Below are positions 1 to 37,752 of a stretch of DNA of 64,000 nucleotides, one piece after another. The notes beneath the pieces were generated by a model. The model was given only the letters and a program-made list of their open reading frames with translations, did not search any database and was not told where the DNA came from. The stretch lies in the sequence record NC_041936.1; one strand, written 5' to 3'. This stretch comes from Escherichia phage ECD7. Position 1 is the first letter of the stretch. The number at the start of each line of letters is the position of its first letter. The position numbers and the translations under genes are program-made.

Positions 1-92
1 TGACAGTTTAAAGTAAAGCCTTTTGTTAGTTGACCATCTGGAATATTGATCTGCCAGTTGCTAGGGTTAGCATAGTTAAAGAGATTAGACAT
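1..92 (-). CDS. hypothetical protein, 5' end only (first 30 codons; continues beyond window start); possibly tail completion protein gp3 by position
   Basis: ATG at 92..90 with GAGGA Shine-Dalgarno 8 nt upstream; frame open to position 1. Confidence 0.3.
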   Translation of the reverse strand, partial: MSNLFNYANPSNWQINIPDGQLTKGFTLNC

Positions 93-537: not shown

Positions 538-543
538 TAAAAA

Positions 544-562
544 AGCCCGTCAATGACGGGCT
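544..562. terminator. bidirectional hairpin terminator (agcccgtca-a-tgacgggct) flanked by A-run and T-rich tract
   Basis: Perfect 9-bp inverted repeat between convergent ORFs 283..537 and 568..1602; similar hairpin at 43141..43159. Confidence 0.5.
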
Positions 563-567
563 TAATT

Positions 568-1602
568 TTAATATGTATCAGCTAATTTAATTATGTTATC
601 AAGTTCCGTGATTGGTAAAGTTTCTGTGTATCCATCTTTCAACATGGATTTATCAACAACGCCACAATGATAAGTTCTCTTTATTTCCTTTTCAAGTTCC
701 CACGGAATCCAGCCATCAACACTTTGTTTGACGTAAACAAGTTTGTGAACAAACTTAGATTTCTGCATATGTTGTTTCATTCTGGTTTCCGGTAATTCAT
801 TGGTTACACCAAACTTTATAAATTTATCATCTAACGTCTGGATATAAAAATATCCCATCTCAGATGGACGATAGCCAGAAGAACTACATTTCGGACACCC
901 TTTAGCATTTCTGTTGAACGTACAATATCTTACAGAAAATTCTGCGTCATGTTTTGTACATTTAAGTTTTATCCATGAATTTGCAGTACCTATCCATTCA
1001 CCATCGACACCTATATATTCATACCCTAACTTTTTACATTTATCTTCTATTCTAGATAGTGCATCTTCCACGGGAACGACATATTCCGTCTTAAATTGTT
1101 CAGCCGCACATTTCTTACAACCACATGTACCATGATTTTTAAAATCAAAGAACTTTGTATTCTTCCAAATGTGGTCATGTTTCTTGCATCTAAGAATCAT
1201 CTTAGTAATTTGTGATTTCCAGCCACCAACAAATCCCAAAAATTCATAATCAAGATCTTTACATTTTTCTTCAATGAATTTGGTTGCTTCCTCTTCTGTC
1301 ATAACTCCCCTACATTGAGGGCAACCAACAATAACCTTTTTAGCATAGAAACTATTACTGGAAACATCATAGACAGTTCCATGCTTATTGCATTGGATAA
1401 CAGATCTAGTCAATTTTCCTTTCCATTCTCCAGAAAATCCTAAGAATGTATGGTCGACAAGTTTACATCTTTCAATAACTTTATCCGCAAATTCTCTAGG
1501 AGATTTTGTTACCTTGTTTACTCTGTATTCTATTTCTTCCGGTTGACGAAGATAATAAACGTGGGGATTGCTCCCCACGGAATTAATATTAATATTAAGC
1601 AT
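568..1602 (-). CDS. protein with three tandem Cys-rich (putative zinc-ribbon) repeats and a C-terminal GIY-YIG-like domain (344 aa from ATG 1602)
   Basis: Three ~60-aa repeats each with conserved W, C-x-KH and GCPxC/CGCxxC motifs; C-terminus GYFYIQ...KFGVT...R..H...E resembles GIY-YIG/T5orf172-type domain; start at 1602 has AGGAAGG SD and overlaps gene 2 stop; longer track ORF to 1704 overlaps gene 2 by 110 nt. Confidence 0.55.
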   Translation of the reverse strand: MLNININSVGSNPHVYYLRQPEEIEYRVNKVTKSPREFADKVIERCKLVDHTFLGFSGEWKGKLTRSVIQCNKHGTVYDVSSNSFYAKKVIVGCPQCRGVMTEEEATKFIEEKCKDLDYEFLGFVGGWKSQITKMILRCKKHDHIWKNTKFFDFKNHGTCGCKKCAAEQFKTEYVVPVEDALSRIEDKCKKLGYEYIGVDGEWIGTANSWIKLKCTKHDAEFSVRYCTFNRNAKGCPKCSSSGYRPSEMGYFYIQTLDDKFIKFGVTNELPETRMKQHMQKSKFVHKLVYVKQSVDGWIPWELEKEIKRTYHCGVVDKSMLKDGYTETLPITELDNIIKLADTY

Positions 1603-2416
1603 CCTTCCACACCTTCCTTGCATCATAGTTTTTACCTTTAGAAACAAATTTATATGTGTTAAGGTAGATAATATTGCTCCAGTCTTTCGGGCTAATCTCA
1701 ACAAGTTTTGTTTTAATGTGTCCAGGTAGATATGCTTTGATCATGTGGTCACTACCACGCATACCTTTTACATCGCTCCATTTGATTTTTAAGCGTGTTT
1801 TATTGCTCAAGGTAGGAGTAGATGCATATTGCTTTAAAAGTGCCTCTAAAAACTGCTGACGGGCTTTAGGCGTTACATAGTGTAAGTTAAGACCCAGCAT
1901 TACAGTATTACCCGCCTTTGTCTTAGAATCACCCAGACAAATGATCAGCGGGAAAACATCCCAATATGGCAAAGTGTCTTTATACTTCGCATCATACATA
2001 AAGGTATAGATTCGCCCTACTTGCGGTTTTACAATCTGGTGTCCCTTTATTCCCGCTTTTATTGTTTTAGTAAACCACTCCTGTGATTTTTCTTTAGGGC
2101 GACTCTTTGATACAGCACGCATAGACGCACGAAAATCATTAATCATCATCATTGCGCGTTGCTGCTTATTGAGACCCTTTGCGCCTTTCCCTTTTAGTTT
2201 TTCAACTTCTATTGCTGTTTTAATTTCGCTGGCATAACGAGACATACTTTTAGTGAAAGTCGCATAGGCTATTCCCTTAGAATCTGCAAATGCTTTAGCT
2301 GTCATTCCTTTGGCTTTTGCTTTCGCAAATTCTACACCCAATTCGACCCACTGTTTAGACTTTCTTTTTTGGGGAGACGGCTTTTCGTCTTCTGTGATTA
2401 TTTCAAATACGCTCAT
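1595..2416 (-). CDS. 2: DNA end protector protein gp2
   Basis: 273 aa, length and position (between 4 and downstream genes) as in T4; basic protein. Confidence 0.7.
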   Translation of the reverse strand: MSVFEIITEDEKPSPQKRKSKQWVELGVEFAKAKAKGMTAKAFADSKGIAYATFTKSMSRYASEIKTAIEVEKLKGKGAKGLNKQQRAMMMINDFRASMRAVSKSRPKEKSQEWFTKTIKAGIKGHQIVKPQVGRIYTFMYDAKYKDTLPYWDVFPLIICLGDSKTKAGNTVMLGLNLHYVTPKARQQFLEALLKQYASTPTLSNKTRLKIKWSDVKGMRGSDHMIKAYLPGHIKTKLVEISPKDWSNIIYLNTYKFVSKGKNYDARKVWKDA

Positions 2417-2427
2417 AATATTATCCT

Positions 2428-2901
2428 CTATTTGTTAAGCCCTTTAAAGCCAAACACTTTCTTTAATGCATGTTCGGTTATGATCTTAAACTCCATGTTA
2501 TGCTTTTGGCATAATTTCACGGCAGCTAACCATTTTTCAGTATTTTTTGTGTACGTCCATACTTCATGCATATATCGTTGCTTTGTCTTCGCGGTCATTC
2601 TTTTTGGCTTTTCCGGTGGCCTTGTCTCTTTAGCTGGTTTAACTTCCCATAAATGCTCCTTGCCATCATCAAACTTAACGTAAAAATCCATAAAGTATCT
2701 GTGTCTTTTCCCGTCTGTTGATGACTCATAAGGAATTACTACGGTCTCAGATCCCCATTTTGCAACTCTAGGATTGCGGTCTAGCCACTGCATGATCCAT
2801 CTTTCCCAGCTTGAACGGTATGTGATCTTACGTATATCCCCTTTATACTTTTCCTTATTCTCAGGAACATACTTGCCCTTATAAGTGTTAGATCCTCCCA
2901 T
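2428..2901 (-). CDS. 4: head completion protein gp4
   Basis: 157 aa, divergent from gene 53 as in T4. Confidence 0.65.
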   Translation of the reverse strand: MGGSNTYKGKYVPENKEKYKGDIRKITYRSSWERWIMQWLDRNPRVAKWGSETVVIPYESSTDGKRHRYFMDFYVKFDDGKEHLWEVKPAKETRPPEKPKRMTAKTKQRYMHEVWTYTKNTEKWLAAVKLCQKHNMEFKIITEHALKKVFGFKGLNK

Positions 2902-37543: not shown

Positions 37544-37603
37544 TCGAAACAAATTTTTATTATTCTATAAGATAAGTCTTCGTTTTGATCATAATTTAAT
37601 CAT
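37544..37603. repeat. intergenic repeat copy B
   Basis: cgaaacaaattttt-tattattcta-aaga...tcttcgttttgatcataatttaatca shared with copies A and C. Confidence 0.7.
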
Positions 37604-37702
37604 ACATGTAAAAACTACACAAAAGGATATCGCTTCGCGAACTCCTACGGAGTATAACATTTGTGTTACAATATGTAGTGATTAATAATTAACCAAAGAT
37701 AC

Positions 37703-37752
37703 ATTTTCTATGTTCTAAAGATCTTTCTTCGTTTTGATCATAATTTAATCAA
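37703..37752. repeat. intergenic repeat copy C (24-mer at 37713..37736 identical to copy A)
   Basis: Direct sequence comparison. Confidence 0.7.

Follow-up and report, generated by a model that had tools for sequence, protein, structure and literature searches.

A probable T5orf172-class homing endonuclease gene between gene 2 and its terminator in Escherichia phage ECD7 and related Krischviruses

Why do some close relatives of Escherichia phage ECD7 carry an intact gene for a 344-amino-acid (aa) protein immediately after gene 2, while most of them lack it? We addressed this question in a 64,000-nucleotide (nt) stretch of ECD7 DNA (sequence record NC_041936.1; hereafter the window), where a sequence-only reading had pointed to an open reading frame (ORF) encoding three Cys-rich repeats and a C-terminal GIY-YIG-like domain. 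The window belongs to Krischvirus (RB49/Phi1-like): the 3 kb around the ORF are 93-99% identical to FL38, G2248, Cognac, ELT3, Phi1 and others. We confirmed the ORF downstream of gene 2 at 568..1602 on the minus strand. Our comparisons indicate that it is, quite likely, a free-standing homing endonuclease gene of the T5orf172 class, situated between the gene 2 stop and the terminator and acting by homing. The gene and the parts of its product are listed below, with expectation values given as E.

568..1602, minus strand: free-standing homing-endonuclease-like gene of 344 aa, stop codon at 568-570 (ORF list and sequence; match to PHROG 681 'endonuclease', E 2.6e-79)
1306..1497, minus strand: CapR-homology repeat 1, aa 36-99 (PF21817), with putative metal ligands C71, H74, C94 and C97
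1102..1296, minus strand: CapR-homology repeat 2, aa 103-167 (PF21817), with putative ligands C139, H142, C162 and C165
880..1068, minus strand: CapR-homology repeat 3, aa 179-241 (PF21817), with putative ligands C215, H218, C238 and C241
571..879, minus strand: C-terminal nuclease domain, aa 242-344, of the T5orf172/MUG113 branch of the GIY-YIG superfamily (homology, fold and conservation)

The three tandem repeats of ~60 aa, described initially as each bearing a Trp, C-x-KH and GCPxC-type pairs, were recovered by a Pfam search, in which PF21817 (CapR homology domain) matched three stretches of the protein (E 6e-15, 55.6 bits against a cut-off of 24.2). The best-matching stretch was aa 110-163, in repeat 2, and DUF723, a related zinc-finger family, matched weakly (E 0.015). 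Every repeat contains the Trp (GEW/GGW), C-x-K-H and GC-x-x-C features, within the pattern helix ..IE.KCK.L.YEFLGF.GEW.G ... C.KH ... GC..C. When 455 repeats from 157 related proteins were aligned with a hidden Markov model, three Cys columns proved to be 96, 97 and 95% Cys and the second ligand column was His in 46% and Cys in 17%, so that the conserved C / H-or-C / C / C columns fit a four-ligand metal site; the Cys of the first helix was conserved in just 39%. C215, C236/C238 and C239/C241 were invariant columns in the full-length alignment, and homologues carry PF21817, PF05265 and PF14311.

An AlphaFold (AF2) model based on a 15-sequence alignment, with a mean predicted local distance difference test score (pLDDT) of 83.6 and a predicted template modelling score (pTM) of 0.36, showed each repeat as a helix, three strands and a short helix. 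The C-x2-H pair was placed at the turn joining strands 2 and 3, and the C-x2-C pair at the start of the next helix/turn. The low pTM is as expected for modules that would fold independently, like beads on a string. CapR is a zinc-finger DNA-binding domain that descends from the T5orf172 homing endonuclease genes of ICP1, and its binding to DNA requires the equivalent Cys pairs (Netter 2021, PMC8096241). These observations support the assignment of the repeats to Cys/His zinc-module DNA-binding domains of the CapR/DUF723 type, which would presumably bind zinc. The earlier description of the repeats as zinc-ribbon-like is thus upheld as regards the zinc-module type given by the Pfam CapR match, whereas the modelled secondary structure suggests a treble-clef-like arrangement and not a classical zinc ribbon.

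The C-terminal string GYFYIQ...KFGVT...R...H...E...GYTET, which had been taken for a GIY-YIG/T5orf172-type core, is present, and its homologues bear out that view. At E <= 1e-3, a profile built from 11 homologues of the domain matched 3399 cluster representatives, of which 852 reached E <= 1e-10; 64 sampled domains were assigned by Pfam at E <= 0.01 to MUG113 (34), T5orf172 (25) or GIY-YIG (5). Nine residues are invariant in the 64 homologues (Y253, K263, G265, R274, G297, E304, G324, E327 and T328), and the window protein has all nine, which fit the GIY...(K/Y)(I/F)G...R...E pattern of T5orf172 domains. Modelling of the domain from the homologue alignment gave a topology of beta-beta-alpha-beta-alpha-(beta)-alpha (pLDDT 94.9, pTM 0.86). 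Structural comparison of the domain listed UPF0213, the restriction enzyme PD-T4-3 (GIY-YIG), I-TevI, UvrC, Eco29kI and T4 EndoII among its lower matches. The three best Foldseek matches were likewise GIY-YIG proteins, although not significantly so; the structural scores were modest. Membership in the T5orf172/MUG113 branch of the GIY-YIG superfamily is therefore supported by transitive homology and fold, not by the domain's own Pfam score, which is below threshold. Searching PDB sequences with the domain profile gave chance matches only (E >= 0.66), and an NCBIfam scan returned no matches. Foldseek of the whole protein against the PDB placed tandem double-stranded RNA-binding domain proteins on top, at a probability of ~0.2 or less; we dismissed these matches, and the search was uninformative because the whole-protein model is multi-domain and flexible (pTM 0.36).

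Relatives of the protein were found by tblastn in 451 phage records. They include an ORF next to pb2 in T5 (E 4e-25; two CapR domains and DUF4379), ICP1 tcgB, annotated as a 'putative homing endonuclease' (E 3e-6 over aa 110-344), proteins of Aeromonas phages with up to five copies, and RB16. The same repeats lie N-terminal to the nuclease in 157 of 165 relatives, with a modal repeat count of three, and across 158 proteins the median distance from the end of the nuclease domain to the C-terminus is 2 residues, with a median of 229 residues ahead of the domain. The reversed architecture had been called atypical, which is true only against the Seg enzymes of T4, since this order is the published norm for the class (PMC10448857, PMC8096241). 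In T5orf172 homing endonuclease genes the DNA-binding part consists of zinc-finger domains (CapR, DUF723 or DUF4397/4379), from one to several, arranged like beads on a string, and the nuclease lies at the opposite terminus; such genes are enriched near essential genes and readily shuffle their domains (PMC10448857). This modularity is underlined by some relatives in which the same repeats are joined to another C-terminal domain, one without T5orf172 motifs. In Phi1 the same gene is ORF130.1 (YP_001469475), an 'endonuclease' in RefSeq, and in Skers its product is a 'putative GIY-YIG nuclease family protein'. The gene is thus a further member of a published class, already annotated as an endonuclease in GenBank and ordinary for its family. 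Neither Barth, Dunham & Seed 2023 (PMC10448857) with its supplements nor a literature search on Krischvirus and homing endonuclease turned up this locus.

Comparison of the junction between gene 2 and the terminator among Krischviruses revealed a presence/absence polymorphism, the gene occurring in 9 of 57 records; these 9 records represent 8 phages, out of ~50 that are nearly identical. Two features define it.

562..1588, no strand: segment of ~1.02 kb that is present or absent (three-way alignment with RB49 and Phi1, anchor distances and junction sequences)
1594..1664, minus strand: 'allele B', the recoded gene 2 3' end (differs from RB49 at 20 of 71 nt; allele survey of 51 records)

The indel has the terminator hairpin on one side and the gene 2 stop on the other; the segment boundaries are ambiguous inside an imperfect 9-nt direct repeat, TTAATNTTA, found at both ends. 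Two conserved anchors are 112 nt apart in 9 phages that lack the gene and 1133-1139 nt apart in 8 loci that carry it. The gene abuts gene 2, inside the gene 3 / 2 / 4 / 53 structural cluster. Its absence from most close relatives and the precise indel seen at the junctions agree with the homing-endonuclease-like insertion that the sequence-only reading had suggested; that reading had also named absence of a fold match and universal presence of the gene as grounds for rejection, and we found neither. The further suggestion that the convergent 84-aa ORF and a repeat copy A had come in with the gene was not borne out: 17 of 17 Krischvirus loci, gene or no gene, have the upstream repeat, the terminator and the 84-aa ORF, gene 3 likewise occurs in all relatives, and the indel covers only ~562-1588. 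The repeat at 165-228 is probably the one meant by copy A.

The sequence beside the indel is also distinctive. Relative to RB49, 20 differences are concentrated in the 71 nt at 1594-1664, as against 23 in the other ~1900 aligned nt (~1.2%), and allele B changes five C-terminal residues of the gene 2 product (gp2), from YMPTYQFMSKGKK to YLNTYKFVSKGKN. A survey of the gene 2 3' end in 51 Krischvirus records, in which Phi1 was counted as two records, gave the following distribution.

Allele A (RB49 type): 39 records, endonuclease gene absent in all
Allele B (window type): 7 records, endonuclease gene present in all
Allele B, partial tract (MIZ4, MIZ5 and kvi): 3 records, endonuclease gene absent
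Allele C (Phi1, two records of one phage): 2 records, endonuclease gene present

In MIZ4, MIZ5 and kvi an A-type junction is followed by B-type sequence, with crossover points between 1598 and 1610 in MIZ4 (L012) and between 1613 and 1622 in kvi (L020). To judge from these sequences, the three gene-less phages are recombinants, and they could represent either nested conversion tracts or products of gene loss. Nested tracts that include the distal polymorphisms and stop short of the gene would be expected if breaks in the end of gene 2 were repaired from a gene-carrying donor. Tracts of this kind have reportedly been described for SegG. We infer that 1594-1664 is both a co-conversion tract and an immunity polymorphism, and that its allele-A counterpart in gene-less phages is the likely target region. 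The gene-conversion footprint at this locus appears unusually clear.

The endonuclease gene was intact in 8 of 8 copies, at 342-344 aa. The Phi1 copy, ORF130.1, occupies the same site and its product shares 80.6% aa identity with the window protein. Between the window-type and Phi1-type copies, the ends of the protein (aa 1-68 and 233-344) are nearly identical, with a synonymous substitution rate (dS) of 0.02-0.03. In the centre (aa 69-232, comprising the end of repeat 1 and repeats 2-3) dS is saturated at 2.6, with a nonsynonymous rate (dN) of 0.29 and a dN/dS of 0.11. At the nucleotide level the diverged centre measures ~490 nt, corresponding to ~906-1400 in the window and 1400-1900 in Phi1 (L002), between ends that are ~99% identical. 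Such a pattern indicates the exchange of an old, selectively maintained DNA-binding module, as far as the substitution rates tell; rapid diversification in situ, or positive selection on the repeats, is ruled out by the saturated dS together with the dN/dS of 0.11. The nuclease domain, with a dN of 0.004 relative to Phi1, is evidently under strong purifying selection.

On the explanation that we favour, the three CapR-type zinc modules (C-x2-H ... C-x2-C) would together read a long DNA site in the manner of beads on a string, and the C-terminal domain would cut DNA through a Tyr-Arg-Glu core of Y253, R274 and E304 along with the family-specific K263 and E327. During a mixed infection, the enzyme would cut the DNA of a related phage lacking the gene, within the final ~70 nt of its gene 2 or close by. 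As the break is repaired by recombination with the gene-carrying genome, the gene would be copied together with the adjoining recoded end of gene 2, and this recoded end, being mismatched to the target, would protect the carrier.

Several points weigh against this explanation. We know of no phage in which T5orf172 homing has been shown experimentally. The 8 carriers are phylogenetically related, so that the linkage counts are not independent events, and the divergence of the flank may merely mark the edge of a horizontally acquired segment. The isolated domain (aa 242-344) matched the Pfam GIY-YIG model only below threshold (E 0.045, 14.5 bits against a cut-off of 22.6), in a weak alignment that covers domain residues 10-47 and takes in Y253 and R274; PF01541 was absent from the full-length protein scan at E <= 1, and the T5orf172 Pfam model gave no match to the window's own C-terminal domain. 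Its second motif reads K-F-G, not Y-I-G. Alignment of the domain family with the I-TevI catalytic domain by hhalign yielded nothing, so the equivalence of the presumed catalytic residues to I-TevI R27 and E75 is a tentative one. Homing of T5orf172 genes has not been experimentally demonstrated in ICP1 either (PMC10448857).

Much of the same evidence could also be read as that of a domesticated or weaponised nuclease which cuts a competitor, be it a co-infecting phage, a satellite or a plasmid, and whose gene was spread by ordinary recombination. We regard this as unlikely. There is a precedent in Odn, a T5orf172 nuclease that was derived from a homing endonuclease gene and is used against PLE satellites (PMC8263062), phage-exclusion roles are known for T4 homing endonuclease genes (PMC2993671), and preservation of the gene in all eight carriers with a dN/dS of ~0.1 would suit a defensive function. 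However, linkage to a recoded flank and graded tracts at the gene's own site are predicted by homing and not required by defence, and we identified no target resembling a satellite or a replication origin. Nor do the two roles exclude each other, marker exclusion being a by-product of homing.

It is rather improbable that the gene is simply an accessory gene moved by ordinary or illegitimate recombination, through PeSL shuffling or microhomology at TTAATNTTA, with its own nuclease irrelevant and the end of gene 2 marking the edge of a foreign segment. Arbiol et al. attributed most ORFs that differ between Phi1 and RB49 to nearby PeSL elements (PMC2839356), and here a PeSL-like repeat lies ~340 nt from the insert, at 165-228, and an imperfect 9-nt direct repeat bounds the insert. 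The PeSL-like repeat and the 84-aa ORF are nevertheless invariant in all loci and lie outside the indel, which makes PeSL shuffling a less likely cause. Also weighing against passive movement are the complete architecture of a nuclease family whose members occur sporadically beside essential genes in many phages and one prophage, the presence of at least three other endonuclease genes at other intergenic sites of the gene 3 - gene 53 interval in sister phages, and the nested-tract recombinants, which point to repeated conversion events. A catalytically dead, CapR-like transcriptional regulator that keeps a degenerate nuclease domain, an idea encouraged by the domestication of the same DNA-binding domain as a repressor in CapR (PMC8096241), by the sub-threshold Pfam scores and by the KFG in place of the YIG motif, is most improbable given that 64 diverse homologues show no variation at nine nuclease residues (among them Tyr, Arg and two Glu), all of which the window protein has, that KFG/KIG is the norm of the nuclease family and no sign of local decay, and that the domain is under strong purifying selection.

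A homing endonuclease gene at this position can be compared with several known systems. It shares with the T5orf172 genes of ICP1 (PMC8096241, PMC10448857) the combination of N-terminal CapR/DUF723/DUF4379 modules with a C-terminal T5orf172 nuclease, sporadic occurrence among near-identical isolates beside essential genes, and modular exchange of DNA-binding regions. It differs in its host, a T4-like member of the Straboviridae (Krischvirus), T4 itself having no such genes (PMC10448857); in its repeats, which have C-x2-H with His as second ligand where CapR has CxxC; and in a nuclease domain too diverged for the Pfam T5orf172 model. The window locus also offers an explicit conversion-tract series, none of which we found described in the text or supplements of PMC10448857. 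The T5 protein AAX12067 ('RB49ORF238c-like protein', encoded upstream of pb2) resembles the window protein in its two CapR domains, DUF4379 and C-terminal domain, and is shorter (265 aa) and set in another genomic context. Phi1 ORF130.1 is set apart by its swapped central region and a third gene 2 flank allele.

The Seg enzymes of T4 (SegA-G, especially SegG) are likewise encoded by free-standing genes between essential genes of a T4-type phage and have nucleases of the GIY-YIG superfamily. The likeness would extend to the expected mechanism, namely a double-strand break in the gene-less allele and then co-conversion of polymorphisms in the flank, possibly with cleavage at a distance (Liu et al. 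2003, cited in PMC10448857). Seg enzymes, however, have an N-terminal nuclease and a NUMOD/helix-turn-helix DNA-binding region, whereas the window protein has a C-terminal nuclease that does not pass Pfam PF01541, and repeated zinc modules; Pfam matched no NUMOD or helix-turn-helix domain in it, its DNA-binding part being the N-terminal CapR repeats. ICP1 Odn (gp88) has in common with it a C-terminal T5orf172 nuclease with conserved Arg and Glu. Odn is the only member of the class with cleavage of DNA shown in vitro, an activity that requires the Glu aligned to I-TevI E75 and is abolished by E180A (PMC8263062); it differs in its RepA_N-like DNA-binding domain, captured from the PLE satellite, and in serving origin-directed anti-satellite defence and not homing (PMC8263062). 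CapR, the Vibrio cholerae PLE capsid repressor after which PF21817 is named, belongs to the same DNA-binding domain family and is a single-domain repressor of 15.5 kDa without a nuclease, whereas the window protein has three such domains and a nuclease (PMC8096241).

Two hairpins bear on how the gene may be expressed.

543..563, no strand: bidirectional terminator hairpin (terminator scan of both strands; annotated in GEC-3S, G2248 and the Makalu phages)
1560..1579, minus strand: terminator-like hairpin of 8 bp, 6 of them GC, with a U-rich tail (terminator scan; inside ORF codons 8-14)

The first is common to the convergent 84-aa ORF and the transcription unit of gene 2 and the endonuclease gene. 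Lying between gene 2 and the terminator of gene 2, the endonuclease gene should be co-transcribed with late genes. The second hairpin, CGTGGGGAGCAATCCCCACG followed by TTTATTATCT, is kept in all eight gene copies, Phi1 included, and may attenuate endonuclease expression. Allele B also contains TATAAATT (1654-1647, minus strand), which agrees with the late promoter consensus of T4 at 7 of 8 positions and does not occur in allele A, and it creates upstream ATGs at 1623 and 1626, both missing from allele A, which has TAC GAC instead of TAT GAT. Allele C of Phi1 has one upstream ATG and no late-promoter-like motif.

These features raise the possibility, which we put forward with considerable reserve, that the recoded ~70 nt are functional within the cassette (through immunity, the ATGs, TATAAATT and the change in gp2) and that repeats 2-3 co-vary with the flank allele, B or C. 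The swapped centre coincides with a different flank allele (C) in Phi1, a single case. Should repeats 2-3 indeed track the flank allele, this would amount to natural re-targeting by module swapping and offer a locus for reading the recognition code of CapR repeats.

The conceptual gain is small, as the family, its architecture and its homing-endonuclease behaviour are already published. The T5orf172 homing endonuclease class would nonetheless be extended to T4-type phages, and the Krischvirus locus provides a tractable E. coli system for testing T5orf172 homing, in which donors of two specificity variants occur naturally, ~39 allele-A genomes could serve as naive recipients, and MIZ4/5 and kvi have empty sites that appear resistant. 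The nested tracts point to the final ~70 nt of gene 2 as the region where cleavage is to be expected. An endonuclease-driven sweep would in this case alter the C-terminus of an essential virion protein, gp2. An earlier inventory missed the Phi1 copy and credited Phi1 with only 2 homing endonuclease genes (PMC2993671).

The ORF at 568..1602 is intact, and its reading frame is open up to 1704. Its ATG at 1602 overlaps the stop of gene 2 (273 aa, 1595..2416, minus strand), which matches PHROG 429 'DNA end protector' (E 2.7e-71). The in-frame ATGs at 1623 and 1626 would give products of 351 or 352 aa, and GenBank annotators differ between 1602 and this upstream pair, so the N-terminus is ambiguous by 7-8 residues. 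Gene 2 is followed by gene 4 (head completion), gene 53 and gene 5. Downstream of the ORF come, in order, the terminator hairpin at 543-563, the convergent 84-aa ORF at 283-537 and the 5' end of gene 3 at 1-92 (minus strand). The ORF therefore does not sit where T4 has gene 3, as had been proposed; gene 3 is kept, beyond the 84-aa ORF. A search of the 64-kb window found no paralogues of the protein.

Some minor observations were made along the way. At 1583-1600, in the 5' end of the ORF, an ATTAAT repeat is expanded by 6 nt; the expansion adds Asn-Ile to the window protein (MLNININS vs MLNINS) and is peculiar to this copy, all seven other window-type copies being without it. In gp2, the DNA end protector match is limited to residues 78-273, and residues 1-75 match another PHROG, annotated 'HTH DNA binding protein' (E 3.9e-27). 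The gene 4 product (2428-2901, minus strand) matches the Pfam endonuclease N-terminal domain Tn7_TnsA-like_N (E 4e-21) and, weakly, two PHROG 'endonuclease' families. The repeat of ~60 nt at 165-228, upstream of the 84-aa ORF, recurs with 83% identity at 37545-37602 and 37689-37752, ~37 kb away, and resembles the PeSL promoter/stem-loop cassettes of RB49 and Phi1 (PMC2839356). A prophage of Salmonella enterica GCA_008263705.1 encodes a 348-aa homologue (L018, 6001-7047) with 35% identity, three repeats and the nuclease; its gene comes right after that of the major capsid protein, the genes running terminase, portal, protease, capsid and endonuclease.

In Krischviruses the interval between genes 3 and 53 is a homing endonuclease gene hotspot. 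phiS (L004, 624-1157) has an HNH_3+AP2 gene between gene 3 and the 84-aa ORF, and MIZ6 (L003, 2374-3069) a NUMOD3-containing endonuclease gene between genes 4 and 53. Makalu_002 (L006, 1815-2837) and Cognac (L005, 2836-3858) carry a 340-aa 'HNH' ORF between genes 2 and 4 that has no Pfam match, and Cognac holds two endonuclease elements of this interval simultaneously.

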